DNA from: Opitutus sp. GAS368
GTDB lineage: Bacteria > Verrucomicrobiota > Verrucomicrobiia > Opitutales > Opitutaceae
NCBI GenBank assembly: GCA_945871085.1
Contig: CAMBVX010000001.1
Span: 7,347 to 71,346, forward strand
Direction of reading: 5' to 3'
DNA length: 64,000 nt
Positions within the stretch are counted from its first letter, which is position 1. Each line of letters starts with the position of its first letter. This document shows positions 34,576 through 59,713 of the stretch, piece after piece. The position numbers were made by a program, and so were the translations under genes. The notes beneath the pieces are model-generated. The model was not told the origin of the DNA. It did no database searches and worked only from the letters and a program-made list of their open reading frames with translations.

Positions 34576-34686
34576 ATTGGCGATTTGGCTGCGGAGCCAC
34601 CGGCCTCCGTGCCTGTGGGGATTGGCGCCACGCCCGCCCGACCGGCAGGCAGGGACGCCTGCCGCTACACTGACCTGACGAACGCC
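34576..34686 (+). repeat. R1 element (copy c)
   Basis: ttggcgatttggctgcGGAGCCACCGGCctccgtGCCTGTGGggattggcgccacgcccgcccgaccGGCAGGCagggacGCCTGCCgctacactgacctgacgaacgcc. Confidence 0.85.
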
Positions 34687-36438: not shown

Positions 36439-37077
36439 TTACTCCAAATGCACGATGCCGTGGCGCACGGCGCTGATCGCGGCGTCGGTGCGGTCGCGCA
36501 CCTTGAGTTTCGCGAACAGGGTCTTCAGGTGCGACTTGACGGTCTCGTCGGAAATATAGAGCTGCGCGCCGATCTCCTTGTTGCTGCGCCCGCGCACCAG
36601 CAGCTCCAGCACCTCCCTCTCCCGCGTGGTGAGATCCTGCCGCTGGGCTCGCACGGCGAGACACTCCGCGATTCGCGGCGGGAGCGCCGTGCTACCGCGA
36701 TGCACCGCGCGAATCGCTCCCGCAATTTCCTCGGTCGACATGTCTTTCAGTAAATAGGACTTCGCGCCGGACTGCATCGCGCGAAACACATCCTCGTCCG
36801 CCTCATAGGTCGTCAGCACAATCACGCGGATCTCCGGATCGCGCGCGCGCAGGCCGATGATGGTTTCCACGCCACCGATGCCGGGCAGGCGCAAGTCCAT
36901 CAGGATGACCGCGGCGAGGTCCGGTTGGTCAGCCGCGAGCACTTCCTCGCCGGAGGAGAACTGGGCGGACACGGTCATGTCGGGCTGGCTCTCGATTAAC
37001 GCCGCCAGCCCCATGCGAAAGGTGGGGTGGTCTTCGACGATCAACACCTGGATGAGAGCGGGCGTGGGCTTTTTCAT
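36439..37077 (-). CDS. NarL/FixJ-family response regulator (REC + LuxR HTH)
   Basis: VLIVEDHPTFRMGL...VILMDLRLPGIGG receiver. HTH LTTREREVLELLVRGRSNKEIGAQLYISDETVKSHLKTLFAKL. Confidence 0.92.
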   Translation of the reverse strand: MKKPTPALIQVLIVEDHPTFRMGLAALIESQPDMTVSAQFSSGEEVLAADQPDLAAVILMDLRLPGIGGVETIIGLRARDPEIRVIVLTTYEADEDVFRAMQSGAKSYLLKDMSTEEIAGAIRAVHRGSTALPPRIAECLAVRAQRQDLTTREREVLELLVRGRSNKEIGAQLYISDETVKSHLKTLFAKLKVRDRTDAAISAVRHGIVHLE

Positions 37078-37103
37078 GGGGTCGAGCGGGTGGCGGCACC
37101 AGG

Positions 37104-39269
37104 CTACGCCGGCAAAAACTTGGCCGCAACTTCCACGCTCGTGCCGCCGTTTTCGCCGCGCCGAATCCGCAGTTCGCCACCCATCTGCTCGACCCGCTCC
37201 TGCATGCCCTGCAGGCCGAAATGACCCACGGCACGCTCGGCGGCCGGATCGAAGCCCCGCCCGTCATCGCGGACGACGAGGAGGATGCGGGCGGCCTCGA
37301 AGCTGATTTCCAAATCGATCACGTGCGCCTGCGCATGCTTCAGCGCGTTGGCCACCGCCTCCTGTCCGATGCGCAGGAGATGATGCTCGATCAGGGGCGC
37401 CAGGCGGCGCGGTTTGCCGGAGACGTGCGTGCGAATCGTGCAGCCCAGACCGGCGCTCATCTGCTCGGCCACCGCCCGCAACGCCCCCAGTAAATCGTTT
37501 TTCTCCAGAACGTGCGAACGCATGTCCCAGATTGATTCCCGCACCTCGGCCAGACAACTGCGCACGATCCCGTGGGCCGTCACCAGGTGCGCCATGATCT
37601 CCTCGACGGCCCCGTGCTTGGCGGAATTCTTTGCCAACTCCATTTGCATCGAGACCGCGTTGAGCTCCTGCGCGATCGTATCATGGATTTCGCGCGCCAA
37701 CCGGTTGCGCTCCGCCAGCATCGCGGCGAACTCCACCTCGGCCAGCGTGCGCGCCTCTTCCCGTTGCGCGATTTTCCGGCGGGCTAAAACCGACACGACG
37801 ACCAGTGCGACCAAGATCACGGCGGTCAGCGTCACCGCGATTGCCAACGCCCGTCGGGTCGTCAGCCAGGGCGCGGCGCGGAGCACGGTGAGATCCTGCG
37901 GGCTGCGCAGGAATAGTTGCATCCGATCCGCCACCCACAGCCCGGAAGGCGGCAAAAAATTCGCCTGCCCGGGCTGGCAGATTCCGGTCGCCCGCACCCG
38001 GCTCCCCGGCTCCCACCGTGCGCCCGGCGGTTCACCGGCCCCACGCGGCAGCAGCGCGTCGACCCGGGTGCCGTTCCAGTCCAGGGCCAACAGCCACCCC
38101 TCCGCCGTGGGCCGCACCTCGTCGAGCGTCGCCTCAATTTGCACGAGGTTGGAATCCTGCCCGGCAATCTTTTCCGGCGTGTCCAGCACCAGCGGCACCG
38201 GCGGCGCACCGGGCGCGACCTGACGGAAAATCGCGTCGTTCAAGTGGGGCGCATAACCACCATGATCGGCGAAGCCCACGACCTCCACCACGTCGCCCGG
38301 CAAAATCGCGCCCGCCTGGTCCGTCGCCACGCGCAAGCCACGTTCCCCTGCTTGGAGCCACAAGGTCCGGCCCGGCTGCTGCGCCGTGACGACGCCGCGC
38401 ACGCGAATCCGGTGACCCGTAAAGCCGGTGGGCGTGAAGCGCAGGATTTCATCAATGGGCTGGAACGGCAGGGCAAACGGATCGGGGGGCGGCGGCGTGG
38501 CGATGGTGATCATGCCCGCCTGCGCGACCTGGACATTTGCCCGCACGAATTGCCGGTTGGCATTGTGCACGTTGAACACGACGCCGCGCAACGTGACCTT
38601 CGCGTCGATCAATTGCTCGGGGGCCACGCGATCGCGGAGCTGCACGACCAGCCGGTCGCTGCCTTGCGCGAGGGTGATGGTCCAGCTTTCCGCTCCGGAG
38701 CCGGGCGGTGCCACGCGGTTGGCCGGAGCCACCTCCCCCGGGCGCGGAACGGCGAAGGGATCCCACGGCGTCGGCCGGCACGAGCGCACGATGCCTTCGA
38801 GCTCAACCCAAGCGGCATCAAAACCACCGGCACCCAGGTCGGCGATGGTCGTCGGCCGGGGCCGTGGTAACGGGCCGGTGCCGATCCAGGTGAGGCGCGT
38901 CGCGCGCACCATCGGCGCGAAACCGCCCGCATCCGTCACCCCGGTTACCTCCAGCCGATCGCCGGGGCGCCGGCTGTTTCCGATCACGTGATTCAATTCA
39001 ACGTAGATACTGTCGGTCTCATCACGCAGCACGAGGGCATCCCGGTGACGGGTGACGAGCAAAAGCGTTCCGCTCAACTGCACGGGACGCTGCTGCGCCG
39101 CTGCGGCGGGCGAAAGCAGACGGACCGCGGCGGCCGTTTTTAGCGGCGGCGGCGGCGCACTTTCCGATCGCGCCGAAATCGCTGCCAGCGCGACCAGCAA
39201 CCAGAGCCCGAGGGGTAAAGCCTGCCACCGCGCAATCACGGACCGGAATGTTTTCAGCTTTCTCCGCAT
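37104..39269 (-). CDS. Sensor histidine kinase, HisKA_3 (NarX/LiaS-like) with about 440-aa periplasmic domain
   Basis: N-terminal signal/TM, a second TM (ALAIAVTLTAVILVALVVVSVL), H-box REIHDTIAQELNAV and an HATPase_c region (LLRIGQEAVANALKHA...DDGRGF...GLQGMQERV). Confidence 0.9.
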   Translation of the reverse strand: MRRKLKTFRSVIARWQALPLGLWLLVALAAISARSESAPPPPLKTAAAVRLLSPAAAAQQRPVQLSGTLLLVTRHRDALVLRDETDSIYVELNHVIGNSRRPGDRLEVTGVTDAGGFAPMVRATRLTWIGTGPLPRPRPTTIADLGAGGFDAAWVELEGIVRSCRPTPWDPFAVPRPGEVAPANRVAPPGSGAESWTITLAQGSDRLVVQLRDRVAPEQLIDAKVTLRGVVFNVHNANRQFVRANVQVAQAGMITIATPPPPDPFALPFQPIDEILRFTPTGFTGHRIRVRGVVTAQQPGRTLWLQAGERGLRVATDQAGAILPGDVVEVVGFADHGGYAPHLNDAIFRQVAPGAPPVPLVLDTPEKIAGQDSNLVQIEATLDEVRPTAEGWLLALDWNGTRVDALLPRGAGEPPGARWEPGSRVRATGICQPGQANFLPPSGLWVADRMQLFLRSPQDLTVLRAAPWLTTRRALAIAVTLTAVILVALVVVSVLARRKIAQREEARTLAEVEFAAMLAERNRLAREIHDTIAQELNAVSMQMELAKNSAKHGAVEEIMAHLVTAHGIVRSCLAEVRESIWDMRSHVLEKNDLLGALRAVAEQMSAGLGCTIRTHVSGKPRRLAPLIEHHLLRIGQEAVANALKHAQAHVIDLEISFEAARILLVVRDDGRGFDPAAERAVGHFGLQGMQERVEQMGGELRIRRGENGGTSVEVAAKFLPA

Positions 39270-39365
39270 GGCGACCTAAAAATAGGTGCGACGCCGGCGC
39301 GTGGCCCAAGAGCGGAGGTCCGAACCGTCAGCGTGCCGCACAGCTGAGATGCACGAAGCGGGCGG

Positions 39366-39625
39366 GTTGGTTTCGGGGGAGCCACCGGCCTCCGTGCCTG
39401 AGGGGTGGGGCGCCACGCCCGCCCGAACGGCCGGCAGGGACGCCTGCCGCTACGCGGAGGCAGAACGAGAACGAGAACGAGAACGATTAGGAGAACGAGA
39501 ACGAGAACGAGAACGAGAAAGAGAACGAGAACGAGAACGATCGGGGGAGCCACCGGCCTCCGTGCCTGAGGGGTGGGGCGGATTTGCGGAACGGCCGGCA
39601 GGGCCGCCTGCCGCTACGCGGTCGG
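39366..39625 (+). repeat. Composite spacer element: R1 copy + hexamer microsatellite + R1 copy
   Basis: 39366-39462 is R1 (GGAGCCACCGGCctccgtGCCTGAGG ... CGGCAGGgacgCCTGCCGctacgcggaggca). 39463-39545 is the (GAACGA)n tract. 39541-39625 is a second R1 copy whose CCGCTAC end supplies the TAG stop of the gene at 39614. Confidence 0.85.
39463..39545 (+). repeat. GAGAAC/GAACGA hexamer microsatellite (about 13 units)
   Basis: gaacgagaacgagaacgagaacgattaggagaacgagaacgagaacgagaacgagaaagagaacgagaacgagaacgatcgg. Confidence 0.9.
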
Positions 39626-40687
39626 CAGATCAAATATCACCCGCAGGCCGCGACCGCCGGCCCCTTCCGCCAGACTGAGGCCGCCGCCGCCGCTCTCCGC
39701 CGCAGAACGCGCGATGGCCAGCCCGAGGCCCAAGCCTTGTTGTTCGCGGTGCACGCGCCCGAATTGCACGAACGCACCGAACCCCGCGCGCTCCTCTGCT
39801 GTCATGCCCGGGCCTTGATCGGAAATTTCGATCATGTAGCGCGCGCCGCGGTGGGCGCCGGTGACGACCACGGGCTGGCCGGGCGTGGAGAAACGAAAGG
39901 CGTTGCCGACGACTTCCGCGATGGCGCTCACGAGGTATGCCTCGGCCAGGAGCACGACGCCGGGGTCGCAGCGCACTGTAAGATCGGCGGTCCGCTTCGC
40001 GGCTTCGGCGGCCCGGTTGGCTCCGGTCATGATGGCCGTCATGTCGCAGCGCAACGGCCGGGCGAGTGGTGGGGCCGCTTTCGCCTGCTCCAATTCGAAA
40101 TAGAGCACGAGCTTGCGGGAGAGGGTGTGCTGGCGTTCGGCCCCGCCGCGGATGAGCGCGAGCAGTTGCTTGAGTTCGCCGGGCTGGATCGTGTCGGCTT
40201 CGGATTCAATCAGCTCGAGACCGCCGAGCACGCCGTTGAGCGGCGTCATGAGTTCGTGGGACCAATTTGCGCTCACTTCCGAACGACGTTCCACGAGGAG
40301 TTGTTCGACGCGTTCCCGGAGCGGTTTCTGCCGTTGCACGCGCGCGGCGATGGCATCGAGGATGTCGCGTTGGGTAAATGGCTTCGTGATGTAGTCGTCG
40401 GCGCCGAGCGCCATGCCGCGGCGTTGGTCGCTGCGGTCGGCCCGGGCGGTGAGGAAGATGAAGGGCACCTCGCGGCCCTCCGGTAGCTGGCGGACGGCGG
40501 TGAGCACTTGGTAGCCGTCGAACCCGGGCAGACCGATGTCGCACAGGATGAGATCGGGGCCCTCCGCCGCCCGCGCGGCCCCGGTGGGGCCGTCGGCTGC
40601 GGCGATCACGGTGTGGCCGTTGAGCTCCAGCATGTCCTGCAACGTTTCCCGGATGGCGAGTTCGTCTTCGATGATGAGGATTTTCAT
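39614..40687 (-). CDS. Response-regulator receiver fused to histidine kinase (REC-HisKA-HATPase_c)
   Basis: Start MKILIIEDELAIRETL at 40687 (ATGA overlap with the upstream gene). Receiver Asp in LILCDIGLPGFDG, H-box NWSHELMTPLNGV, and a C-terminal HATPase region (ISDQGPGM...QGLGLGLAIAR). Confidence 0.88.
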   Translation of the reverse strand: MKILIIEDELAIRETLQDMLELNGHTVIAAADGPTGAARAAEGPDLILCDIGLPGFDGYQVLTAVRQLPEGREVPFIFLTARADRSDQRRGMALGADDYITKPFTQRDILDAIAARVQRQKPLRERVEQLLVERRSEVSANWSHELMTPLNGVLGGLELIESEADTIQPGELKQLLALIRGGAERQHTLSRKLVLYFELEQAKAAPPLARPLRCDMTAIMTGANRAAEAAKRTADLTVRCDPGVVLLAEAYLVSAIAEVVGNAFRFSTPGQPVVVTGAHRGARYMIEISDQGPGMTAEERAGFGAFVQFGRVHREQQGLGLGLAIARSAAESGGGGLSLAEGAGGRGLRVIFDLPTA

Positions 40688-41796
40688 GGTGAAAAAAGTG
40701 CCGGCGGTCCGACGGGTGGGATTTTTGTCGGAGCAGGGGCGTGAGCGGGCAGTTCGAACCAGAAACGGGCGCCGTGCCCGGATGCGCTTTCGACGCCGAC
40801 CTGGCCGTGGAGTTTTTCGACGATGCGGCGCACGATCGAGAGACCGAGGCCGTGGCCTTTGACGCGCACTGCGGAGATGCGGGTGAAGGGCACGAACATC
40901 ATCGCTTGCGCGGCGGCATCGAGTCCGAGCCCGGCATCCTGCACCCAGAAACGGGTCGAGCGCCCGTCGACGCCGGGTTCTCCGCCGACCGTGATGAGCG
41001 GGTTGGCCCCGCCATATTTCGCGGCGTTGCTGATGAAATTGACCCAGACCTCGATGATCCACGGCGCGTAGCCGAACGCGTCGGGCCAGACCGCAGGTAG
41101 ACGCACGTGTGCGCCGCTCTGTTTGAGGAGGTGCTCCAGCCGATCAATCGCTTCGGCGACGATCGCCGTCATATCGAGGCGCTGCGGGACGACGGCCTGG
41201 CGGCGGACGCCGGAGAGGATGAGCAGTTCCTCGATGATATCATTGAGGCGCCGCGCGGAGTGGGCGGCCTCGTGGAGGTGATGCCGCATCGTCGCTTCGT
41301 CGGCTTGGCCGAGCATCATCGTCGCGAGGTCGAGTCGTCCGCTGAGGGTGCAGAGGGGATTCTTGAGATCGTGGGCGACGGTGTGGGCAAACGCGTCGAG
41401 TTCATCCAGCAGTTCCTTTTTTTCCAAGCGGGCGGCGATGGAGTGCATCACCTCGGCCTCGGTGAAGGGTTTGGTGATGAAGTCCGTGGCGCCGAGCTCC
41501 ATGCCGTGGCGGGTCGTGGCACGGTCCACCTTCGCCGAAATCACGATCACCGGGATCGCCCGCAACGCATCGTCGCCGCGAAACGTTTCCAAGAGCTCGA
41601 AGCCAGTCATGCCCGGCATATTGATGTCGGTGATGATGAGGGCGGGCAGGGCGCTGCGGGCGAGGGCGAGACCCGCGAGGCCATCGCTGGCGACGAGCAC
41701 GTGAAAGCCGTTGAGCGCGATCATCTCGGCGAGCGTTTGGCGGAGGGCTTCGTCGTCCTCGATGATCAAAATGGTGGCGGGGTGGAGGGGCGTCAT
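40684..41796 (-). CDS. Response-regulator receiver fused to histidine kinase (REC-HisKA-HATPase_c), paralog of the downstream gene
   Basis: ILIIEDDEALRQTL...LIITDINMPGMTG receiver, H-box FAHTVAHDLKNPL, NFISNAAKYG, and VQDAGLGL...GHGLGLSIVRR. Confidence 0.88.
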   Translation of the reverse strand: MTPLHPATILIIEDDEALRQTLAEMIALNGFHVLVASDGLAGLALARSALPALIITDINMPGMTGFELLETFRGDDALRAIPVIVISAKVDRATTRHGMELGATDFITKPFTEAEVMHSIAARLEKKELLDELDAFAHTVAHDLKNPLCTLSGRLDLATMMLGQADEATMRHHLHEAAHSARRLNDIIEELLILSGVRRQAVVPQRLDMTAIVAEAIDRLEHLLKQSGAHVRLPAVWPDAFGYAPWIIEVWVNFISNAAKYGGANPLITVGGEPGVDGRSTRFWVQDAGLGLDAAAQAMMFVPFTRISAVRVKGHGLGLSIVRRIVEKLHGQVGVESASGHGARFWFELPAHAPAPTKIPPVGPPALFSP

Positions 41797-44700
41797 GGCG
41801 GGAGAGTCGGGCTGGGGAGGCGCGGGAAAGTCAGGGTGAAACGGCTGCCGCCTCCGACCGCTGGCGCGACCTCCACCGTGCCGCCGAGCAGGCCGATCAT
41901 GCGTTGCACAATGTTGAGCCCGAGGCCGGTGCCCTTGATCGTGCCGACATTGGACCCGCGCTCGAAGGGTTCGAAGATCCGCGCGCGATCCGACTCCGGA
42001 ATGCCGATACCGTGATCCTCGACGGACAGCTGCGCCCGTGCCGTTTCGACCACCAACCGCACGGCGACGAGTGTGCCGGCGGGCGAGTAGCGCACCGCAT
42101 TGCTGAGGAGATTGGAAAGGATGTGATGGAGCAGATTGGGGTCGGAGGGGAAGGCCAGGGCATCGCCGGTGGCGGAGAATTCAAACCGGTGCTGGTCGCG
42201 GTCGCCCAGCCGGATTTCCTCGATCGCCTGGTGCACGAATGACTGCAAATCGAGCGGCGCGAGCTGGACCTCGACGCGGTTGGCGTCGACCCGGTTGAGC
42301 AGGAGGATTTCGTCCAGCATCTGGGTCATGCGCTGGAGCGAGGTGGCGATGCGGGCCAGCAATTCCTGGCGTTTCTCCGCGGTGAGGCGGTCGAGATGGT
42401 TGGCGAGGATTTCCACCGAGCCCAGCGCCGCCGCCATCGGCGTGCGAAATTCGTGCGAGGTCACGGAGATGAAACGCGTCTTCATTTCGGAAACCTGGCG
42501 CTCCTTTTCCATCATCGCGCGCATGGCCGCCTCGTGGCGTTTCTGCGCGGTGATGTCGTCTTTCAGGGCGACGTAGTGGGTCGCCCGGCCTTGCGCATCG
42601 ACCACGGGGGCGATGACGGCCGTCTCGAGATAGGTCTCCCCGTTTTTCTTCCGGTTGCGCAGCTCGCCGCTCCATACTTGGCCCCGCCCGAGGGTGGCCC
42701 ACATGTCTTGGAAAATCTGGGCTGGGGTCTCGCCGGAATTGAGGATGCGGGGGTTCTGGCCGAGTGCTTCCGCCGAGGTGTAGCCGGTTACGAGGCTAAA
42801 CCGGGGATTCACATATTCGATCGCGCCGGTGAGGTCGGTGATGACGACGGAGAGCGGCGCCTGCTCGATGATGGTCGACAACTTGTGCAGTTGCTCGCCT
42901 GCCGCCTTCTCATCCTCGACCACGCTCAACAACACCTGCCGCGCCTGCTCCAGCTCGACCAACGACTGGCGGGTTTTCTCGTCGGCGCGCACCCGCTCGG
43001 TCATGTCGCGGATATTGCATTGGATGACCTTGTGACCGTCCACCAGGTAGACGTTGCTGACAAACTCCACCTCGATCCGCCGCCCAGCCTTAGTTTCCAG
43101 CGCCATGTCTTCGTAGCGGATGTATTCCTTCGCCTGCAACTCAGCGAAGTTGTCCTGGTTGGCGACGAGGTTCTTGAAAAATCCCAGCTCCCAAACCTTC
43201 TTGCCGAGAAACACCTCGTGCGAGTAACCCAGCATCTCGACGAGAAACGGATTCACGTCCACGATCATCCCCGTCTCGGCATCGAGAATCAATATGCCGT
43301 CCTTGGCCGACTCGAAGAGCCGGCGATAGCGGATCTCCGAAGTGATCATCGCCCGCTCCGCCTGCACGCGTTCGGCCCGGGTGCGCAGCGCGGTGATGCC
43401 ATAGCCCAGATCGCCGACCAGCTCGCCCAGCAGCGCGACTTCCTCCTTGTTGAAGGCGTCCGACTCGGCGGCATACACACTCAACACCCCGAACGCGCGC
43501 TCGCCGCTGAGCAGCGGAAAGGCGACCGAGGAGTTGTAGTCGCGCTGGGTGGCTTCCGCCCGCCAAGGGCCAAAGGAGGGATCGGTCGGGATGTCGCGGG
43601 CGATCACCGGCTGGCCGGTGCGGATGGCCGTGCCGGTGGGGCCGCGTCCGCGCTCCGTGTCAGCCCAGATGACGCCCAGCGTATCGAGATAGCCGGCCTC
43701 GCTGCCGGCTTGGGCGACGGGGCGCACCGACTTCGCGTCATTCTGCTCCGCGAAACCGACCCACGCCATGCGGTAGCCCCCGTGCTCAACCACGATGCGG
43801 CAGACGGCTTGCAGCAGCTCCGTCTCGGAGTTGGCGCGCACCAGCGCTTGATTGCACTCGCTGGCGATGCGCAGCGCGCGGTCGGTCCGGCGCAACGAGG
43901 CTTCGGCCTGTTTGCGCTCGGTGATGTCCTTGTGCGTGCCGATCACCCGGAGGGGCTGGCCCGCGGCATCCCGCTCGATTACCAGACCGCGATCGAGCAT
44001 CCATTTCCAACTGCCGTCCTTGCAGCTCATGCGGTGCTCGTTGGCGTAGTGTGCGGTCGTGCCGGCGAGGTGCGCCTGCACGTCGGCCATCACGCGCGGC
44101 AGATCCTCGGGGTGCACGCGCTTGCTCCACTCCTCGAGACCGCTGCCGATTTCGTTTTCCGCAAAACCCAGCATCGCTTTCCAGCGCTTGGAAAAAACCA
44201 CCTCGCTGGCGGGCACGTTCCAATCCCAGACACCGTCGCCGGTGCCCTCGACGGCAAATTGCCAGCGCGCTTCGCTCTGGCGCAACGCCGCCTCCGCTTG
44301 CTGGCGCTCCGTAATATCGGTCGCCATGGCAAAAATCATCTGGTCTGCGGTTGAAACACTCGCTGACCAGGCAAGGAGTCTGAACTCACCATTTTTTTGG
44401 CGGTATCGGTTTTCGAAATAAAAAGTGTCTATCCCGTGAGCGAGCTTGCCCATCTCGGCGCGGGTTGCGGCTTGGTCATCCGGATGGATCAGATCAAGAA
44501 AATTGACCCCCGTAAGTTGCCCTGTGCCATACCCCAGCAAATCCTCGAAACTCTTGTTCGCGCGTTGGATCACGCCGTCAGGCTTGGCGATCAGATTCAG
44601 AGCGATGGGCTGCGCAAAGAATTTGTTGAAGATTTCCTCCGTCCGCTTGCGCTCGGTGATGTCCTGATGCGTGCCGATCACCCGGAGGGGCTGGCCTGCG

Positions 44701-46004: not shown

Positions 46005-47230
46005 TTTGCACCCTCCACCACGCTCGGATACTTGGGCGGCTCGCCGTGACTGGCCCGCAGGGCGTTGATCTCCCGCTTGAGTCCGAGCACGCGGCCCTCG
46101 CGGCCGAGCGTCGCTCCCTGCCAGCGGCGCAACTCCTCCATTTTCGCCGCGAGATTCGCCGCCGCCGCCTTTTGCTCGGTAACGTCGCGGATGATCGCGG
46201 TGAAAAATTTCTGCCCGCCGATCTGCCATTCGGAGAGGGAGAGGTTGAGCGGGAATTCACTGCCATCCTTCCGCCGTCCCTCCACGTCCACCGTGGTGCC
46301 GATGATGTGGTGCGGCCCGCCCGCCAGCACTCGCGCCAGGCCCGCCTCATGACGCTCGTGGTGCCGGGTCGGCAGCAGCAGCGTGAGCGGCTGGCCGAGA
46401 ATTTCACTTTCCTGATAGCCGAAAATATTTTCGGCCCCGGGATTCCAGCCGATGACGTGGCCCGCGCAATCCGCGCTGATGATGGCGTCGGCGATCGAGT
46501 TGACCATCGCGCCATAGCGCGCCTCGCGTTCGCGCACCGCCGTCTGCGCCCGCTTCTGGTCTTCCAATGTGCTGAGCAGGGCCCGGCGGGCGCGCTCGGC
46601 CAGCGCTGCGTCCTGCCGGTGCACCTGGTCCGCTTGGGCCTGCGCGGTGAGGTCGGTCAAAACCAGCAGTAGCTGGCCTTCGCCGCGCCCACCCGGGACG
46701 GCGTTGATCATCAATTGCGCGGGGAAGGTGGTGCCGTCTTCCCGCGCCAGGGTGAGTTCGCCGTGGATCGGGGGAGCGCCCGTCGGACTCCCCGTGGCGG
46801 CCGCGCGCACTTGTTGGCGCAGCCGGTAAAACCGGTCCTGGTCTGCCGAGATGATGAAGCGATGGAACGGGCGCTGGATCAGCGTGGCTCGCGTGATCCC
46901 GAGCAGGCTGGCGCAGTGGAGGTTCGCCTCTTGAATCAGCCCCGCTTCGCTGACGGTGCAATAGCCCACGGGGGCGAGGTCGTAGAGGTCGTAATACCGC
47001 GCGCGGGATTGCTCCAGGTCGTGCTGCGCGCGGCGCAGCTCATCATTCTGCATTTCCAGCTCGATCTGGTGGACTTGGAGCTCGTGCAGCAGCGCGCGCG
47101 TGGCGTCGGGCGAGAGCGCCGCCAGACCGGCGGGTGCGGCGAGCGTTTTTGCGTGTAAGGCCGCTTCCGCCTGCGTGCGCAGGTCGGTCGCGGCACCGGC
47201 GGCGGGAGCACGATCAGCGAATTTTTTCAT
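46001..47230 (-). CDS. PAS-only sensor protein (coiled-coil N-terminus + 2-3 PAS, no output domain)
   Basis: Start MKKFADRAP at 47230. LLHELQVHQIELEMQNDELRRAQ...YYDLYDLAPVGYCTV. The C-terminal coiled coil EELRRWQGATLGREGRVLGLKREINAL ends without a kinase or other output domain. Confidence 0.8.
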   Translation of the reverse strand: MKKFADRAPAAGAATDLRTQAEAALHAKTLAAPAGLAALSPDATRALLHELQVHQIELEMQNDELRRAQHDLEQSRARYYDLYDLAPVGYCTVSEAGLIQEANLHCASLLGITRATLIQRPFHRFIISADQDRFYRLRQQVRAAATGSPTGAPPIHGELTLAREDGTTFPAQLMINAVPGGRGEGQLLLVLTDLTAQAQADQVHRQDAALAERARRALLSTLEDQKRAQTAVREREARYGAMVNSIADAIISADCAGHVIGWNPGAENIFGYQESEILGQPLTLLLPTRHHERHEAGLARVLAGGPHHIIGTTVDVEGRRKDGSEFPLNLSLSEWQIGGQKFFTAIIRDVTEQKAAAANLAAKMEELRRWQGATLGREGRVLGLKREINALRASHGEPPKYPSVVEGAK

Positions 47231-47249
47231 GTGCGGCGGAGTTCGGAAG

Positions 47250-47612
47250 ATTTTCGGAACGGCAGGCAGGACGCGGGCCACTGCGCGGAGGCAGCAAGAG
47301 AAAGCTTAAGAGAAAGAGGAAAAAGAACGAGAACGATCGGGAGAACGAGAACGAGAACGATCGGGAGAACGAGAACGATCGGGCGAACGAGAACGATTAG
47401 GAGAACGAGAACGATCGGGCGAACGAGAACGATTAGGAGAACGAGCACGATCGGGAGAACGAGAACGATTAGGAGAACGAGAACGATTAGGAGAACGAGA
47501 ACGATCGGGCGTAGCCACAGGCCTCCGTGCCTGTGGGGTTTGGGGGCGGGTGCGCGCGGATTTTCGGCACGGCAGGCAGGGACGCGGGCCGCTGCGCGGA
47601 GCGGCCGGTTTT
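47250..47612 (+). repeat. Composite spacer element: partial R1 (hairpin B) + 18-nt tandem array + R1 copy
   Basis: cggaacGGCAGGCaggacgcgggccactgcgcggaggcagc, then the array at 47296-47508, then GCGTAGCCACAGGCctccgtGCCTGTGGggtttgggg...cacGGCAGGCagggacgcgggccgctgcgcggag. Confidence 0.85.
47296..47508 (+). repeat. Tandem array of about 10 x 18-nt units GAGAACGAGAACGAT(CGG/TAG)
   Basis: Units alternate GAGAACGAGAACGATCGG, GCGAACGAGAACGATTAG and GAGAACGAGCACGATCGG. A degenerate AAGAGAAAG lead-in precedes them. Confidence 0.92.
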
Positions 47613-47623
47613 TTCCGGCACGG

Positions 47624-49282
47624 CTACGCCGGGAGCGGAATCTTCGCTGCGGCGGGCGTGAACGTCACGGCGAAGATCGCGGCGGGTGCCGGGCCGATCA
47701 CGAGCGTGGCGTTGAGTTGCGTGGTCAAGTCGCCCACGAGTTGCAGGCCGAGGGAGTCGCCGCGCCGCGCCGCGAAATCCGGCGGCAGGCCGACCCCGTC
47801 GTCGCTCACGCGCAGGCAAATCTGCGTGCTGCCGGCGACGGGCTGTAAGGCGATCCGCACTTCGCCGCCGCGCCCGGCGGGGAAGCCGTGTTTGAGGCAG
47901 TTCGAAATCAATTCGTTCACCAACAGACCGCAGGGTGCGGCCTGATCCATCGTGACGGTGATGGGCGCGAGTTCCAGCGTGAGCCGGACGAGGGCGGGCG
48001 CGGCGTTGAGCATACGGAAGGACTGCGTGGCAATTTGCCCCAAGTAGCTGCCGAGGTCGACGGCGGCGAAGGTGCCGGAGCGGTAAAGCATATCGTGCAG
48101 CTGCGCCATCGCGCGGATGCGCCCCTGCATGTCGGTGAGCACCGTCTTCGTGGCGGGCACGTCGCTCCGCCCGCTCTCGAGGCGCAGGAGGCTGGTGATC
48201 ACCTGCAGGTTGTTCTTCACCCGGTGGTGGACTTCGTTCAACAGCGCGGTCTTTTCGTGGAGGGAGGCTTGCAGGGCGACCTGCGCCCGTTTGCGGACGC
48301 TGATGTTCTTATGCGCCATGACGGCCCCCGCGCGCGACCCCGCCAGACGGGTGATGGTGAGGAGGAACCACCGATCCTCCGTCGGCGAGTGGCCGGGATA
48401 CTCCAGCTCAAACTGCTCCTGTTGCCCGGCCAAGACCGCGCTTAGCCCCGCTGCCACCGCGCTCGCCTCAGCTCCGTCGCGAAACGTCGCCGCCGCCCCG
48501 TGCACCTCCAGGTAGTTCGCGCCCACGGAATAGTTTCCGCGATCGGAGGCCCCGTGGTCTGCGGCGAATTGTTTCCACGCGCGGTTGACGAAGATGATGA
48601 CCGCCCGCTCGTCCAGCACGGCGATATGGTCGGACATCGAGTCCAAGATCTGGCCGTGTTCGATTTCACGCTGGCGAAGGACGGCCTCCACCTGCTTGCG
48701 GGTGGAGATGTCCGTCAGCACCAGGCTCAGCACCGTCTCGCCGTTGGTGCCGGTGTCGGCGCGCACCACAAGATTGACCCAGAGGGGCGGACCGTCGCCG
48801 CGCACCAAACGCAGGTCAGCCGAGTGCACGTTTGGCGCCGGTGCCGCGTCGGCCGGCCGAGCCTCGAGCGCCTGTTTCTTCAGGAAGTAATAGGGGTCCT
48901 GGTCGTCCTTGAGGATAAATTGGGCGAACGACTGGTGGACCAGCGCGCCTCGCGCCACGCCGAGCAACGTGCTGAGGGTGAGGTTGGACTGCAGGATTTT
49001 TCCGGCGGCGCTGACGGTGCAGTAGCCGACCGGGGCGAGGTCGTAGAGGTCGAAATAACGCGCGCGGGAAAGCTCCAGTTCGCCCTGCGCGCGGCGCAGT
49101 TCCTCTTTCTGCATCTCCAGCTCGATTTGGTGGACTTGGAGCTCGTGCAGAATGATCTGGGCCGCCTCGGGGGCGACGGGGTCCGGGCTGGCCGGCGACG
49201 CGGCGGCCTGGGCGCGGTGAGCGGCTTCGGCCTCGGCGCGGAGTGCGGCGGGGGTGCGGGATAAATCGTCGGGCGGTATCAT
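47624..49282 (-). CDS. PAS-PAS histidine kinase of the HisKA_2/HWE-type
   Basis: N-terminus ILHELQVHQIELEMQKEELRRAQ, two PAS domains, H-box EVHHRVKNNLQVITSLLRLE, and an ATPase region LVNELISNCLKHGF...DDGVGLP...SLGLQLV. Confidence 0.88.
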   Translation of the reverse strand: MIPPDDLSRTPAALRAEAEAAHRAQAAASPASPDPVAPEAAQIILHELQVHQIELEMQKEELRRAQGELELSRARYFDLYDLAPVGYCTVSAAGKILQSNLTLSTLLGVARGALVHQSFAQFILKDDQDPYYFLKKQALEARPADAAPAPNVHSADLRLVRGDGPPLWVNLVVRADTGTNGETVLSLVLTDISTRKQVEAVLRQREIEHGQILDSMSDHIAVLDERAVIIFVNRAWKQFAADHGASDRGNYSVGANYLEVHGAAATFRDGAEASAVAAGLSAVLAGQQEQFELEYPGHSPTEDRWFLLTITRLAGSRAGAVMAHKNISVRKRAQVALQASLHEKTALLNEVHHRVKNNLQVITSLLRLESGRSDVPATKTVLTDMQGRIRAMAQLHDMLYRSGTFAAVDLGSYLGQIATQSFRMLNAAPALVRLTLELAPITVTMDQAAPCGLLVNELISNCLKHGFPAGRGGEVRIALQPVAGSTQICLRVSDDGVGLPPDFAARRGDSLGLQLVGDLTTQLNATLVIGPAPAAIFAVTFTPAAAKIPLPA

Positions 49283-50274
49283 GATGGGGCTCCTTCGCGC
49301 GCAGGTCGGCGGGCACTGAGATCTTGGAGGAAAACGACGAGTTGCCCGCCCTCGACCGGGCGAAATTGGAAACTGACTTCGACCTCAAAGGTGGTCCGGT
49401 CCTTGCGGCGATGGCGGCAGGTAAAAACTCGGCCGTCACCGGCCAATACTTGTTGAAGGTGGGCGGCGGTGGCGGCGGCCGTCGAGGGGTCTTCGAGCTC
49501 GGAGATGTGCATCGTGAGCAGTTCATGCACGTCGTAGCCGCTCATGCGGCAATAGGTCTCGTTGACTTCCAGCAGCTGGCCGCGGGCATCGGCCAGCCAG
49601 AAGCCGGCCATGGCCGTTTGGAGGATGGCCCAGTGCTGCTCTTCGCGCTCCCGCAACGCCTCCTCCAGCTGCGTGCGCTCCGTAATGTCGCTCAGCACCA
49701 GGCGGAGCGTGGGGGCGCCGCCTGCTTCCGGCGCGACCGCCGCCGTCAGGTGCATGAGCCGGGGCGGGCCATCGGGCGGGAGGATCAACCACTCGCCCGA
49801 GAGCGATTTAACGGCCGACCCGGCGGCGGCCGCCTCGGACGTGAGGTGGTGCCGGAGCTGGAGGTAAAATTTGTCGGTGTCGGCCGGGGCGAGGAAACGG
49901 GCGAACGGTTGCCGGAGCAACGCGCGGTGGGGCAGCCCGAGGAGCGCGGCGAGGGTGAGGTTGGTCTCGATCAGCCGGCCCGCCGCGTCGAGGGTGCAGT
50001 AGCCGACGGGTGCGAGGTGATAGAGATCTGAATACCGCGCGCGGGAGGCGTCGAGTTTCGCCTGAGCGTGGCGCAGTTCCTCGTTCTGCATTTCCAGCTC
50101 GATCTGGTGCAAGCGCAGCTCGTGCAGCAGCAGTGGGATTTCGGCGGGCGTCGCCGCCGCGGAAGGGGCGGCGAGGTCGCGGGCGTTGTTGTGCAAGAAC
50201 GCGGACTCCGCCCGCGCGCGGAGGGCGGCGGACGGATCGGCGGCGGCGGCGGAAAGATCAGGCGACGGTTTCAT
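49279..50274 (-). CDS. PAS-only sensor protein (coiled-coil N-terminus + 2 PAS)
   Basis: LLHELRLHQIELEMQNEELRHAQ...YSDLYHLAPVGYCTL. A second PAS follows (WAILQTAMAGFWLAD...), with no output domain. The stop overlaps the downstream kinase start by 4 nt. Confidence 0.8.
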   Translation of the reverse strand: MKPSPDLSAAAADPSAALRARAESAFLHNNARDLAAPSAAATPAEIPLLLHELRLHQIELEMQNEELRHAQAKLDASRARYSDLYHLAPVGYCTLDAAGRLIETNLTLAALLGLPHRALLRQPFARFLAPADTDKFYLQLRHHLTSEAAAAGSAVKSLSGEWLILPPDGPPRLMHLTAAVAPEAGGAPTLRLVLSDITERTQLEEALREREEQHWAILQTAMAGFWLADARGQLLEVNETYCRMSGYDVHELLTMHISELEDPSTAAATAAHLQQVLAGDGRVFTCRHRRKDRTTFEVEVSFQFRPVEGGQLVVFLQDLSARRPAREGAPS

Positions 50275-50295
50275 GGGCGGGCGGGCGCAGGAAAA

Positions 50296-50640
50296 GTTTT
50301 TCAGATCGGCAGGCCGGGACGCCGGCCGCTACGCGGAGGCAGAACGAGAACGAGAACGATTAGGAGAAAGTGAAAGTGAAAGGGAAAGAGAAAGTGAAAG
50401 TGGAGGAGGAGAACGAGAACGATGGGTGGAGCCACAAACCCCCATCGGTTTGCACCGCAGAGACCCCATCTTCAGAGCGCAGAGCAAGGCAGGGGTTTTC
50501 TCTGCGTCGCCGAATTCCGCGTCTCTGCGGTGCAAAAAATCTGCGGCTTGAAAATGCCCACAGCACAACAACCCACCCAGATAACGGCCTATCGTGACGC
50601 GCTACAGCCGGGACGCCGGCCGTTACGCTGAGGGATTTGG
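50296..50640 (+). repeat. Composite spacer element: partial R1 + hexamer tract + degenerate hairpins + R1-like tail
   Basis: cGGCAGGCCGGgacgCCGGCCGCTACGCGGAGGCA, then the tract at 50342-50424, then ggagccacaaacccccatcggtttg, then tctctgcgtcgccgaattccgcgtctctgcggtgcaaaaaa, then cagCCGGgacgCCGGccgttacgctgagg. Confidence 0.75.
50342..50424 (+). repeat. Mixed hexamer microsatellite (GAGAAC and GTGAAA/GAAAGT units)
   Basis: gaacgagaacgagaacgattaggagaaagtgaaagtgaaagggaaagagaaagtgaaagtggaggaggagaacgagaacgatgg. Confidence 0.88.
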
Positions 50641-50649
50641 CCGGGGTGG

Positions 50650-53600
50650 TCATGGGGCGCCGGCCTCTGCCGTCCGTTCCGTCGTGGCGATCGCATACGG
50701 CCGGCCCCTTTCGTTGATCAGGACGGTCGCGATCATCGAAATTTCCACGATCTGGCCGGATTTGGTGAGGCGCTGCGTGCGATAGGGCTCCAGCACTTTC
50801 GCGTGGCTGAGCTCTCGCATTTTCTCACTCTCCTGGTACCGCTGCGCGGGCGGGATGCGGTCGCTCGCGTTCATCGTCAGCGCCTCGGCTTCGCTCCAGC
50901 CATACATCCGCACGGCGCCTGGATTCCACGCGAGGATGCGGCCGTTCAGATCCTTGACCGTGATGGCATCGTGCGCATCGCGCACCACCACCGCCAGCCG
51001 CAGCAGGTCGTTGGCTTCGCGCAAGGCGGCGCGCGTTTGCGCGATCTCGGTCACGTCCACGAATGAGATCACGGCGCCCTCGATCACGTTTTCCAGCGTG
51101 CGGTAGGGCTGGATCTTCATCACGTAGCTTTCGCCCGCGAGGGTCTGCACAGGGATCTCCTTGGTCACGAGCGTGTCGAGCACCACTTTCAAATCGTTGA
51201 TGAGGCCGGTGTAACTCACGAGATTCGAGACGATGTGCGCGACCGGCCGCCCGACGTCGGTCGGGATCAGGTTGATGATGACGCTGGCCGCGGGGGTGAA
51301 ACGCAGAATGCGCAGCTGATGGTCCACGAACACCGTGCCGATGCCGGTGCCGGCGAGCAGGTTGTTCATGTCGTTGTTCATCCGCGAGAGATCGACCACC
51401 TTGGTCTGCAACTCGGTATTGATGGTGGCCAGTTCCTCGTTGAGCGACTGCAACTCCTCCTTGGAGGTTTCCAGTTCCTCGTTGGTGGATTGCAGCTCTT
51501 CGTTGATGGACTGCATTTCCTCGTTCGACGACTTGAGCTCCTCGGAGGAGCTCTCCAGTTCGGCGCTGGTGCTTTGCAGATATTCCTCCGTGGCGCGGAG
51601 TTCGGCCTTGAGCGCGGCGATGCGCTCGGCGGCGTCTGGCGAAAGGGTGCCGTGCGCCACGGGCGCGAGGTCGTCGCTCATGGCGACGACCGACGGTGGC
51701 GCCGGGGCCGCGAGCGGCGCTTCCTCGAGGATGACCAGAAAGAGTGGCGCCTCCGGGGACGCGCCCGGGCCGGAGGTCACCGGCCGGATGGTGAGGTTGA
51801 CTGTGGTGAAGTGGCCGTTGGTTTTTACGCGCAGGCCCGGGTGGACGCCGGTGTCGCCGGTGCCCACCGCCCTGTACAGGCCGGAGGTCAGCTCGCGGCG
51901 CAGGCCCTCGCGAGCCATCTTAAGGATGTTGTTGAGGCCGGCCTCGCCGGGGCTGGGCTCGAGAAACAGGCCGGTGCGACCGTGCAGATAGAGGATATCA
52001 CCGTGGGCGTTGACCAGCGCGCCGGCGGCGATGATCTGCGCGAGCAGCGCGTGCTCGGTGGTTTCGCGCAGCGAACTGCGTGCGCCTTTGGCCGCCGCTA
52101 TTTTTTCCTGCGCCGATGGCAGCGCCGCACCCGTCGCCGTGATGGGTGGCCGGAAGAGCCGGAGGGCCGCGCGTTGCTGGCCCTGCAAGTCAGCTTTGCG
52201 CTGATACAGATTGGCCTTGCGGTCGATGGCGCTGAACAGGCCGTTAAACTCGCCCACGCCTTCGGACGTGCCGAGGAACAGGGTGCCCTCCGCTTTCAGC
52301 GCATGGTGAAAGAGCGGGATGAGTTTCTTCTGCAGGTCCGTGCCCAGGTAGATCAGCAGATTCCGGCAACTGATCAGATCGAGTTTGGAGAAGGGCGGGT
52401 CTTTGATGACGTCCTGCTTGGAAAATACCAGCAGGTCGCGGATGCCTTTGTGGATGCGGTAGGCGCTGCCGTCGGCTTCGGCGGTGAAAAAACGCGCCAG
52501 GCGCTCCGGCGAGAGGTCGGCGGCGATGCTCGCCGGGAAGAGCCCGGTCCGGGCGGTGGCGATGGCCTGGCTGTCGATGTCGGTGGCGAACACCTGCACC
52601 GGGAAGCTGGCCTTGAGGGCCTCCATGCGCTCGACCAGCAGAATGGCGATCGAGTAGGCCTCCTCGCCGGTGGAGCAACCCGTGCTCCAGACACGGATCA
52701 CCGCGCCGGGGGATTTGTGCGCAAAGAGAGTCGGGATGACCTGATCCTCCAGCACCTGAAAGGCCTCGGGATCGCGGAAGAAATTGGTGACGCCAATGAG
52801 CAGGTCCCGAAACAGCGCCTCCACCTCGGCGGAAGTCTGCTGCAGATATTTGACGTAGTTGTCGATCCCCTCGATCTGGTGCACCGCGATGCGCCGGTCG
52901 ACGCGGCGGTGGATGGTGCTGGGTTTGTAGAGGGAAAAGTCGTGGCCGGTCTGGGCGCGCAGCAGCTGGAAAATTTTCTTCATCGCGCCCTCGACGTGGG
53001 GCGCGGAGAGGGTGGTGGCTTTGGGGAGTTTCCTCAAGGCGTGGGTGGCGTAGGCGATCAGCTGCGCGGGCATCTCGGCCGGCGGCAGCTCGTAGTCCAC
53101 GAGGCCGGTGCCGATGGCGCTGCGCGGCATGCCGTCGAACTCGGTCGATTCCGCGTTCTGCGCCATGACCATGCCGCCCTCGGCCTTGATGGCGCGCACG
53201 CCCTGGGTGCCGTCGCTGCCGGTGCCCGAGAGGACGATGCCGATGGCACGCTCGTGCTGATCCGCAGCGAGGGAGCGGAAGAAAAAATCGATCGGCAGGC
53301 GGTGGCCGCGCGGCTCGCCGGGTTCGAGCAACTGCAGCGTGCCATTGACGAACGCCATGTCGCGGCCGGGCGGAATGATGTAGGCGCAGTTGGGCTGCAC
53401 GACCATGCCGTCCTCGACCTCAAAGACCTGCATGCGCGTGCAGCGGCGAATGAGTTCGGAGAGGATGCTCTTGTAGTCCGGGGCCAAATGTTGCACGAGC
53501 ACGAAGGCCATGTCCGTATCGACGGCGGCGGGCATGCCGGCGAAAAACGCCTCGAAGGCGGCGAGGCCGCCGGCGGATGCACCGAGGCCGACAATCGGAA

Positions 53601-53745
53601 AACCGAGGGCGGCAGGTGCGGGGGCTGCCGGGGAATCGGCGGCGGGCGAAGCCGCGGGCGCCGGAGCGGGGGCCGGAGCGGGTGGCCGCGCGGGCGGGGT
53701 GGCGGAGGAAGTAGCAAGGTCCGGATTGTCTTTAGAGCTTTTCAT
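50650..53745 (-). CDS. CheB methylesterase - CheR methyltransferase fusion with coiled coil and C-terminal PAS domains (no kinase domain)
   Basis: Start MKSSKDNPD at 53745. CheB block IVGLGASAGGLAAFEAFF...VLSGTGSDGTQG. CheR block IRVWSTGCSTGEEAYSIAILL...DLISCRNLLIYL. Heptad tract ELKSSNEEMQSINEELQSTNEELETSKEELQSLNEEL. Two PAS-like domains, then the stop. Confidence 0.88.
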   Translation of the reverse strand: MKSSKDNPDLATSSATPPARPPAPAPAPAPAASPAADSPAAPAPAALGFPIVGLGASAGGLAAFEAFFAGMPAAVDTDMAFVLVQHLAPDYKSILSELIRRCTRMQVFEVEDGMVVQPNCAYIIPPGRDMAFVNGTLQLLEPGEPRGHRLPIDFFFRSLAADQHERAIGIVLSGTGSDGTQGVRAIKAEGGMVMAQNAESTEFDGMPRSAIGTGLVDYELPPAEMPAQLIAYATHALRKLPKATTLSAPHVEGAMKKIFQLLRAQTGHDFSLYKPSTIHRRVDRRIAVHQIEGIDNYVKYLQQTSAEVEALFRDLLIGVTNFFRDPEAFQVLEDQVIPTLFAHKSPGAVIRVWSTGCSTGEEAYSIAILLVERMEALKASFPVQVFATDIDSQAIATARTGLFPASIAADLSPERLARFFTAEADGSAYRIHKGIRDLLVFSKQDVIKDPPFSKLDLISCRNLLIYLGTDLQKKLIPLFHHALKAEGTLFLGTSEGVGEFNGLFSAIDRKANLYQRKADLQGQQRAALRLFRPPITATGAALPSAQEKIAAAKGARSSLRETTEHALLAQIIAAGALVNAHGDILYLHGRTGLFLEPSPGEAGLNNILKMAREGLRRELTSGLYRAVGTGDTGVHPGLRVKTNGHFTTVNLTIRPVTSGPGASPEAPLFLVILEEAPLAAPAPPSVVAMSDDLAPVAHGTLSPDAAERIAALKAELRATEEYLQSTSAELESSSEELKSSNEEMQSINEELQSTNEELETSKEELQSLNEELATINTELQTKVVDLSRMNNDMNNLLAGTGIGTVFVDHQLRILRFTPAASVIINLIPTDVGRPVAHIVSNLVSYTGLINDLKVVLDTLVTKEIPVQTLAGESYVMKIQPYRTLENVIEGAVISFVDVTEIAQTRAALREANDLLRLAVVVRDAHDAITVKDLNGRILAWNPGAVRMYGWSEAEALTMNASDRIPPAQRYQESEKMRELSHAKVLEPYRTQRLTKSGQIVEISMIATVLINERGRPYAIATTERTAEAGAP

Positions 53746-55232: not shown

Positions 55233-55245
55233 CCCGGTCTTGATG

Positions 55246-55665
55246 TTTTGTCATCGCGAGAGCTGAACCAAGGCGCGGCGCCTTGGGTGCCCGGGGCAAT
55301 GAACTTTGTTTGTCATGGCGAGCTCGGAGCAAGCGAGCTTGCGGGGTGGTGGCAGTGAACCGGACAAGGTTTGTCATTGCGAAGGAGGCTTGCCGACTGT
55401 GGCAATCCATCTGGAAACGCACCGTGGATTGCCGCAGTCGCTGAGGCTCCTTCGCAATGACAAACAGCGGCTGTTTCCTAGAAGAAGCGCAGCGACGTGG
55501 CCATCCATCTGGAATTTCAGCTGGATTGCCGCGCCCGCCAAGCCGGGCTCGCAATGACAAACTGTATGTGTTCATTCGCAGGAGCAGCCCTCCGCGCGGC
55601 GACGAAGCAATCCAGCTGGATCGCCACGCCGCGCGCCTTGCGCCACGCGAGGACGATCATTTCGA
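55246..55665 (+). repeat. Cluster of GTCATTGCGA...TCGCAATGAC-type long hairpin repeats (R2 units a-b-c-d-e)
   Basis: For example 55369-55462: TTGTCATTGCGAAGGAGgcttgccgactgtGGCAATCCAtctggaaacgcaccgTGGATTGCCgcagtcgctgaggCTCCTTCGCAATGACAA. Units a, d and e recur in the same order at 57688-57927. Confidence 0.88.
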
Positions 55666-55757
55666 ACCCACGCCCTGCCACTCGGCGCGGCGCGCTAGTG
55701 CTCGTTGCCCCGCGTCGTTCATGATGCTCACCTCGTCGTGCAATGTTAGGTCCCTCG

Positions 55758-55824: not shown

Positions 55825-55902
55825 CGGCGACTTAACAGGGTAATACTCGATCACTGAGCCGGTCGACTGACCGCCGCCCCCGGTGAATTTCCCTCCCGAA
55901 CG

Positions 55903-59698: not shown

Positions 59699-59713
59699 AC
59701 CCCCTCTTTTCCC

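Follow-up and report, generated by a model that had tools for sequence, protein, structure and literature searches.

Introduction

HisKA_3 kinases are the usual partners of NarL-type regulators, and proteins that join a receiver (REC) domain to a kinase core build multikinase networks in Leptospira (LvrA/LvrB) and Myxococcus (EspA/EspC). In the CheR/CheB system of Escherichia coli and Salmonella, a methyltransferase and a methylesterase/deamidase act on methyl-accepting chemotaxis proteins (MCPs), whose methylation sets the output of CheA. The methylation sites follow the consensus EExxA(S/T), and those of Tsr, at 297, 304 and 311, are spaced by seven residues (PMC1079850). The Che3 pathway of Rhodospirillum centenum is reported to control the REC-HWE kinase CheS3 (PMC4436063). 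Here, we analyse a 64-kb stretch of DNA (contig CAMBVX010000001.1, hereafter the window) with a high GC content (~64%) from an uncultured Opitutae/Opitutaceae bacterium (Verrucomicrobiota). In this window, nine signalling genes follow one another on the minus strand, and the first of them, G1, encodes an enzyme, CheBR, with domains homologous to the methyltransferase and methylesterase/deamidase of E. coli. In contrast to the chemotaxis paradigm, CheBR unites both enzymes in one polypeptide with three PAS-type folds and lacks a REC domain. The partner conserved with it is a cytoplasmic helix-PAS module, with kinases, cyclases or nothing behind it.

The run of genes had been interpreted, from the sequence alone, as a single branched phosphorelay ending in one NarL-type regulator. 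We favor, with a probability of about 0.6, a different interpretation: three signalling modules, each inherited separately, make up the run as a mosaic and lie adjacent and co-oriented in this genome. Module A (G1-G4) is CheBR acting with its client proteins. Module B (G5-G7) is a kinase triad, to the head of which G4 is translationally coupled. Module C is a two-component pair (G8-G9) with a sulfatase and a TonB-dependent receptor. The supercluster itself is ordinary and of modest interest, since Verrucomicrobial genomes are rich in sensor genes.

Results

Domain architectures of the nine proteins, numbered G1 to G9 from position 53745 down to 36439, were obtained with Pfam (Table 1). In G1, a CheB domain (residues 51-237) and a CheR domain (248-516) are followed by a PAS-like fold (559-675), a long helix (705-800), a PAS_10 domain (803-897) and another PAS domain (927-1025). 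The AlphaFold2 (AF2) model of the protein (predicted local distance difference test score, pLDDT, 67.6; predicted template-modelling score, pTM, 0.33) was used for domain boundaries only; given this pTM, the inter-domain geometry, such as the position of the helix relative to the active sites, was discarded. The CheB domain is clearly recognizable (PF01339, E = 4e-55), and its GASAGG, QHL and GSDG motifs align with the Ser/His/Asp triad motifs of the CheB structures 1chd and 6ymz and are invariant in a 48-sequence alignment of the family. The CheR part matches PF03705 (CheR_N) and PF01739 (CheR), as well as CheR structures at 1e-27, and is conserved in the family; the PAS_10 domain behind the helix matches PF13596. 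Conservation of the PAS domains and of the helix is as strong as that of the catalytic domains, both of which appear intact. Among structures in the PDB, only stand-alone CheR and CheB proteins match G1 by sequence. Pfam gave no Response_reg match in G1, and the absence of a REC domain makes a control of the CheB part by CheA impossible. The usual companions of such enzymes, MCP, CheA and CheW, were absent from every substantial open reading frame (ORF) of the window, as the original prediction had noted.

The helix of G1 is a single uninterrupted one in the AF2 model (residues 705-800). It contains six Glu-Glu pairs that are invariant in the 48-sequence alignment and exactly seven residues apart (735/6, 742/3, 749/50, 756/7, 763/4 and 770/1), in the heptads EELKSSN, EEMQSIN, EELQSTN, EELETSK, EELQSLN and EELATIN. 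Because the DNA encodes these heptad repeats, it shows a 21-nt period (5.5 copies at 51430-51544, Tandem Repeats Finder). The pairs resemble, at the level of sequence, the methylation sites of MCPs, and their spacing on a long helix is akin to that of the sites of Tsr.

The G1 family is large, with more than 8000 sequence clusters at E <= 1e-20, which is a lower bound. The best 120 homologues are 60-82% identical to G1 across ~1000 residues, and their source names include Verrucomicrobiota, Victivallaceae, Contendobacter, Rhodoferax, Acetobacterium and Coprothermobacterota. Likewise, among the CheBR loci that we compared (L089-L170), identity is 65-82% over ~1000 aa across the labels Verrucomicrobiota, Lentisphaerae, Beta- and Gammaproteobacteria, Firmicutes (Acetobacterium) and Coprothermobacterota. 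This is unusually strong for a signalling protein and suggests horizontal spread together with tight constraint. G1 is also 70-80% identical, over its full length and in the same domain order, to proteins named 'CheB/CheR fusion protein' by JGI, and it has the REC-less CheB with its triad, CheR_N, CheR, the helix and PAS_10 of that family. The corresponding JGI/KEGG name ('two-component system, chemotaxis family, CheB/CheR fusion protein') is an annotation label only. In the open-access full-text literature we found no work on the function of the family, on its motifs or on its conserved neighbour, and neither a paper on CheR-TPR nor one on che in Geobacter treats it.

The genomic context of the family points to a partner. 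A metagenome scan provided 80 further CheBR loci, with 65-75% identity to G1, in which the strict motif EL[EQ]x[QE]N[ED]EL occurs almost only 115-420 nt past the CheBR stop codon and on the same strand. From the 130 residues around this motif, which comprise a helix and then a PAS domain, we built a hidden Markov model (HMM) of what we call the client module. Among the loci whose downstream sequence spans at least 600 nt, a gene with this module lies directly downstream of CheBR on the same strand in 62 of 68 (gene start within -200 to +1600 nt), and many of these genes overlap the CheBR gene by 4, 8 or 17 nt. In two of the six exceptions the module is present further downstream, and the other CheBR contexts, read individually, agree with this pattern. 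The closest relatives of G1 (80-82% identity) have CheBR and one 1600-aa client kinase with a 4-nt overlap, among otherwise unrelated neighbours. In a control set of 80 loci rich in PAS kinases, by comparison, only eight contain the client module anywhere. None of these eight has a CheBR match in its flanks, and the sole CheBR-like match of the control set is at a different locus (L006). Apparent CheBR-client fusions turned out to be artefacts of joined matches and were rejected; there is no client module within the top 120 homologues of G1. Searches with tblastn for the MCP signalling domain gave no match in the window or in 86 CheBR loci, of which the 80 metagenomic ones alone amount to 843 kb. 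Given the linkage to clients and the lack of MCPs in these loci, we conclude that the functional partner of the CheBR family is the helix-PAS module and not a chemoreceptor.

The client module is N-terminal in nearly all its relatives (2080 clusters at 50% identity, E <= 1e-30), which bear only generic source names of the type 'PAS domain S-box'. In 52 clients that we compared, the N-terminal module is near-invariant and the downstream outputs vary: a HATPase kinase core is present in 39, HisKA in 26, REC in 25, GGDEF in five, HisKA_3 in four, HisKA_2/HWE in three and EAL in two, and the others consist of PAS domains only. The near-invariant residues of the client helix (E47/E54/E61, L48/L55/L62/L69 and Q52/N59/Q66) follow the same register as the helix of G1. 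Hence, the two share a heptad signature, Glu(g)-Leu(a)-x-x-x-Asn/Gln(e), if both are read as coiled coils with Glu at g, Leu at a and Asn/Gln at e, a register that we infer. The client helix had no PDB match by sequence, and Foldseek searches with the client model returned only generic PAS folds (FixL, LOV, DosP).

In the window, the client HMM matches exactly three proteins, G2, G3 and G4. The original prediction had raised the idea that CheBR acts on the neighbouring PAS proteins. The comparative evidence speaks strongly for this choice of candidate targets, since these three are of exactly the type that follows CheBR genes across phyla. G2 has one further PAS domain after its client module, and its stop codon overlaps the start of G3 (ATGA). 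In G3, the AF2 model of residues 1-210 (pLDDT 90.9) shows a 45-residue helix (38-82) running into a PAS domain (85-191). This module is followed by the second PAS domain and a HisKA_2/HWE-type core (PF07568, 5.5e-24; PF07536, 4e-9) that resembles the EL346/PhyK type and matches the EL346 kinase at 4.5e-18.

G4 overlaps the start of G5 with its stop codon (GTGA). For its start codon, the ATG at 47230 is a better candidate than the GTG at 47281, which falls within a REP-like (repetitive extragenic palindromic) repeat. The second PAS domain of G4 is like the haem domains of FixL in FixL/FixJ systems (8js5, E = 4e-26; 1d06, 1e-24), with the proximal His conserved ('rhe' aligned to 'rhd'). In contrast to FixL, which is a fused O2-regulated kinase, G4 has no kinase domain and carries the client module at its N-terminus. 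A Val of G4 aligns with the position of the distal Arg of FixL. From its sequence, G4 probably senses gas or redox state through haem. It lacks an output domain and is coupled to G5 at the level of translation.

Module B is of an ordinary kind, a multikinase operon. G5 has a signal anchor, a periplasmic SBP (solute-binding protein) domain and one transmembrane segment. It contains a direct repeat (43903-44202 and 44638-44937) of at least 300 nt with 95% identity, 735 nt apart, which was left by a recent in-frame duplication of a 735-nt, PAS-containing block (~245 aa); the orthologous ORF in L005 is shorter (1104 aa). In G6 and G7 the REC domain precedes the kinase core. This order fits receiver-gated kinases, in which REC would be an input rather than a relay receiver. 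By gene order, G5 could phosphorylate the receivers of G6 and G7, forming a kinase cascade or a multikinase node. In this respect module B is like the networks of LvrA/LvrB and EspA/EspC, which also have REC-kinase proteins behind a sensor kinase, and LvrA is the best NCBIfam match for G6 (below the cut-off); yet the wiring proposed here follows from gene order only.

Among 80 genome hits related to G5, the orthologous loci are two, both in Opitutae: L005 (full length, 76% identity) and L014 (residues 311-1395, 69%). The other loci were dropped for the analysis of synteny, as they look like paralogues from other phyla with multiple PAS domains. At L005, the genes for a PAS protein, an SBP-GAF-PAS kinase (76%) and G6 (69%) extend up to the contig end, with a PIN gene and another PAS protein upstream and no CheBR. 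L014, the only locus to continue beyond the triad, encodes a PAS-GAF protein, a REC-PAS kinase, G6 (63%) and directly after it G7 (67%), followed by convergent metabolic genes, with neither G8/G9 nor CheBR. The orthologues of G6 and G7 thus adjoin different sensor genes in other Opitutae, and a terminal response regulator for them is in the operon neither here nor in L014.

Module C is an ordinary HisKA_3/NarL-type two-component system beside its probable regulon. G8 has ~225 homologues; the few that bear an organism name come from Verrucomicrobiota. In two complete Opitutae genomes (L171 and L172), G8 (71-74% aa identity) is directly followed by G9 (82-88%), and a TonB-dependent receptor (67%) and a sulfatase (43-44%) lie downstream. 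Upstream are unrelated genes, an RND (resistance-nodulation-division) efflux operon in one genome and MCP genes with a PAS hybrid kinase in the other, and no homologues of G1, G5, G6 or G7 were found within 10 kb of the pair in either. The HisKA_3 kinase and the REC-GerE regulator are 26 nt apart in the window, and the pairing is conserved; G9 is the probable cognate partner of G8. Both share their domains with NarX/NarL systems (HisKA_3 and HATPase in G8, REC and GerE in G9), and NarL is the best NCBIfam match for G9. However, the scores are below the equivalog cut-offs (100.9 against 578 for NarX with G8; 155.7 against 250 for NarL with G9), the sensor of G8 is a different periplasmic domain of ~440 aa, and the conserved neighbours are the TonB-dependent receptor and the sulfatase, not nitrate genes. 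The conserved gene order makes these two genes the likely regulon of G8/G9. Hence, G9 most probably controls them together with G8, and is unlikely to be the output of the run as a whole.

We could assess whether the run is one unit by comparing the relatives of three different anchors (G8-G9, G5-G7 and G1). Six loci (L005, L014, L169, L170, L171 and L172) each keep one module only. The gene set is therefore not kept together in relatives, which is what the original prediction itself had named as the outcome that would speak against it. Its observations were largely right once the counts are corrected. The co-directional run on the minus strand, the gene order and the architectures were confirmed by Pfam, and the four 4-nt overlaps (49279/49282, 46001/46004, 41793/41796 and 40684/40687) are real, with the sequences ATGA, GTGA, ATGA and ATGA. 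Three receiver domains and one helix-turn-helix (HTH) output are indeed present, and the PAS/GAF modules, announced as at least 12, number at least 14. In place of ten sensor/transmitter genes there are eight, plus one regulator, and the kinase cores are five (G3, G5, G6, G7 and G8) rather than four. The 17-kb run is on one strand throughout, but it is broken by three gaps of 344-393 bp, and it goes on beyond 36439 into the sulfatase and then the TonB-dependent receptor gene. An independent gene caller gave the same lengths for G4-G9 on contigs of the same species, inspection of the translations by eye suggests that H-boxes and receiver Asp/Thr/Lys positions are intact, and none of the nine proteins reached an NCBIfam equivalog cut-off. 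Pfam gave no Hpt family match in any of them, and the run therefore does not encode a strict His-Asp-His-Asp relay. A scan found no sigma-70-like promoters, and terminator-like matches were mostly within genes. Proteins identical to those of the window are present on ENA metagenome contigs, and the nearest genome loci are Opitutae metagenome-assembled genomes.

Table 1. Positions in the window of the genes, modules and gaps of the signalling run and of the two genes that follow it
Feature	Position (nt)	Strand	Basis or content
G1, CheB-CheR-PAS fusion, 1031 aa	50650..53745	-	Pfam: CheB_methylest, CheR_N, CheR, PAS_10, PAS
96-residue helix of G1, candidate methyl-accepting	51346..51633	-	AF2 helix and invariant alignment columns
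Gap G1-G2	50275..50649	-	REP-like hairpins and CGTTCT/CACTTT hexamer arrays
G2, client, 331 aa, two PAS, no output domain	49279..50274	-	Pfam; client HMM 138 bits
Client helix-PAS module of G2	~49828-50130
G3, client, 552 aa, two PAS, HisKA_2 and HATPase	47624..49282	-	Pfam; client HMM 172 bits
Client helix-PAS module of G3	~48740-49153
Gap G3-G4	47231..47623	-	REP-like hairpins and about nine copies of the 18-nt unit CGATCGTTCTCGTTCTCC
G4, client, 409 aa, two PAS, no output domain	46001..47230	-	Client HMM 168 bits; 409-aa gene call in L001
Client helix-PAS module of G4	~46700-47092
FixL-type haem-PAS of G4	~46151-46546
G5, membrane sensor kinase, 1403 aa, SBP_bac_3, about five PAS, GAF, HisKA and HATPase	41793..46004	-	Pfam, transmembrane scan
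G6, REC-HisKA-HATPase, 370 aa	40684..41796	-	Pfam; ATGA overlap with both neighbours
G7, REC-HisKA-HATPase, 357 aa	39614..40687	-	Pfam; G6 paralogue, ~30% identity
Gap G7-G8	39270..39613	-	Two REP-like units and 13 copies of CGTTCT
G8, membrane sensor kinase, 721 aa, large periplasmic domain, HisKA_3 and HATPase	37104..39269	-	Pfam, transmembrane scan
G9, NarL/LuxR-type response regulator, REC and GerE HTH	36439..37077	-	Pfam
Sulfatase	34758-36257	-	Gene calls
TonB-dependent receptor	30967-34302	-	Gene calls

REP-like hairpins and a (CGTTCT)n microsatellite occupy each of the three gaps. The REP-like element is always on the minus strand and consists of hairpin A (GGCAGG-CGTC-CCTGCC), a spacer of ~35 nt and hairpin B (CCACAGGC-ACGGAG-GCCTGTGG); the sequence AGAACGAGAACG has 26 matches against 0.48 expected. 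Further copies lie at 20403, 28580-28657 and 34595-34672, and it is only at the three gaps within the signalling run that the element includes the (CGTTCT)n or 18-nt microsatellite. The gap between G7 and G8 measures 344 bp here; in two further samples of the species, which have the entire unit in duplicate, it is 525 and 490 bp long. We found no support for the hexamer arrays as regulator-binding sites; their length varies by strain, and they sit within REP-like repeats.

Elsewhere in the window, a copper/haem respiratory cluster (54027-64000) lies on the plus strand, divergent from G1. It includes a porin-like protein, a NirK-like multicopper protein with a C-terminal cupredoxin (below the NirK cut-off), a divergent COX1-like protein, a CoxB-like CuA protein, a CoxA-like subunit I, SCO1/SenC and cytochrome b. 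Given the resemblance of G4 to a haem gas sensor, the cluster could conceivably be linked to it in regulation. A separate OmpR-type two-component system on the minus strand (25239-28406; REC-Trans_reg_C and a HisKA kinase, with a CarboxypepD_reg-domain gene between them) means that signalling genes are dense beyond the run. Finally, a 1041-aa protein with repeated immunoglobulin-like domains (Ig_3, I-set, MBG_3), encoded at 20721-23846 on the minus strand, is probably surface or adhesin-like.

Discussion

On the best reading of our results on module A, CheBR modulates PAS sensor proteins by methylation and independently of MCPs; the linkage of the genes is observed directly, and the chemistry would follow from the domains and residues involved. 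G1 would work with its clients as a fusion of PAS domains with a CheR methyltransferase and a CheB methylesterase/deamidase that lacks REC. It may dock onto clients by pairing of helices and PAS domains, and reversibly methylate or deamidate heptad Glu/Gln residues, either those of its own six-EE helix or those of the client helices, or both sets. The modification would set the gain of the client outputs, as MCP methylation sets that of CheA, and it would be governed by the PAS sensors of G1. In this locus, one CheBR enzyme could serve three clients, one of which is a putative haem gas sensor feeding a three-kinase cascade. It is tempting to extend this scheme to the whole family, as a widespread, MCP-free two-part system in which Glu methylation and Gln deamidation of a heptad coiled coil give PAS kinases and cyclases adaptation or memory. 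We put this general scheme forward only tentatively, and we would not bet on it at even odds.

Several observations weigh against our interpretation. Gene adjacency indicates a functional link, not a relation between enzyme and substrate. Clients are also found without a CheBR gene in their flanks (up to 10 kb on each side), no CheBR-client fusion protein exists among the top 120 homologues of G1, and in the window G1 and G2 are 375 nt apart, with no overlap. The helices are imperfect matches to known substrates, as the client helix departs from the strict EExxA(S/T) consensus and that of G1 has Ser/Thr where MCPs carry Ala. Concerning the mosaic, all three modules are adjacent in several samples of the species, and some local cross-talk is possible. 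The phosphotransfer partners of G3, G5, G6 and G7 are deduced from domain order only.

The client helix has one EE pair only, followed by bulky residues, and it is the helix of G1 alone that comes near an EExx(small)(S/T) pattern, with six invariant sites. These differences might indicate that the only substrate of CheBR is its own six-EE helix, in cis or in a homodimer, and that the methylation state alters the binding of its helix and PAS_10 domain to clients, which would be partners and not substrates. The shared g/e heptad signature would permit the heteromeric coiled coil that this requires. Yet, complex formation is a conjecture from sequence, and the near-invariant Glu/Gln pattern of the clients is stronger than a docking helix needs. 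Such a restriction of CheBR to itself is therefore unlikely in our view, although less so than the explanations that follow.

If all nine genes formed one branched, multi-input phosphorelay, with the NarL-type G9 as its sole transcriptional output, one could understand why they are co-oriented, why G2-G3 and G4-G7 are tightly coupled, why five kinases accompany one HTH output, and why the arrangement recurs across several samples of the species. Operons need not end at REP-containing gaps, and for G3, G5, G6 and G7 no output partner is obvious in cis. However, the modules are inherited separately, and G8-G9 travels with the TonB-dependent receptor and the sulfatase, not with G1-G7. Furthermore, the HPt domain is absent from the nine proteins, and NarL-type regulators normally pair with HisKA_3 kinases such as G8, which is only 26 nt upstream of G9. 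The single relay foreseen by the original prediction thus finds no support in these comparisons, and we consider it improbable.

It is more improbable still that G1 is a conventional chemotaxis adaptation enzyme that acts in trans on MCPs encoded elsewhere and has irrelevant neighbours, because, even if its catalytic domains appear intact and MCP genes are present in other Opitutae loci (L014 and L171), there is no MCP in 843 kb of CheBR loci and a client gene is directly downstream in 62 of 68, the CheB part without REC is beyond the control of CheA, and the PAS domains and the EE helix are as conserved as the catalytic domains.

Module A, which we thus continue to regard as a CheBR enzyme with its clients, can be compared with the Che3 pathway of R. 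centenum, where Che-type methylation enzymes are reported to be tied likewise to a non-motility output through a kinase of the HWE/HisKA_2 class (PMC4436063). Che3 keeps an MCP, CheA, CheW and separate CheB and CheR proteins, whereas module A is devoid of those.

The pairing of CheBR with its clients is the part of the cluster that matters, and it would explain the 'orphan' CheB-CheR enzyme. The sequences provide candidate sites of modification, E736 to E771 in G1 and E47, E54, E61, Q52, N59 and Q66 in the clients. If CheBR methylates the helices, methylation-based sensory adaptation is not confined to chemoreceptors and also tunes histidine kinases and diguanylate cyclases. The adaptation principle of chemotaxis would then have been carried into ordinary two-component and cyclic di-GMP signalling.

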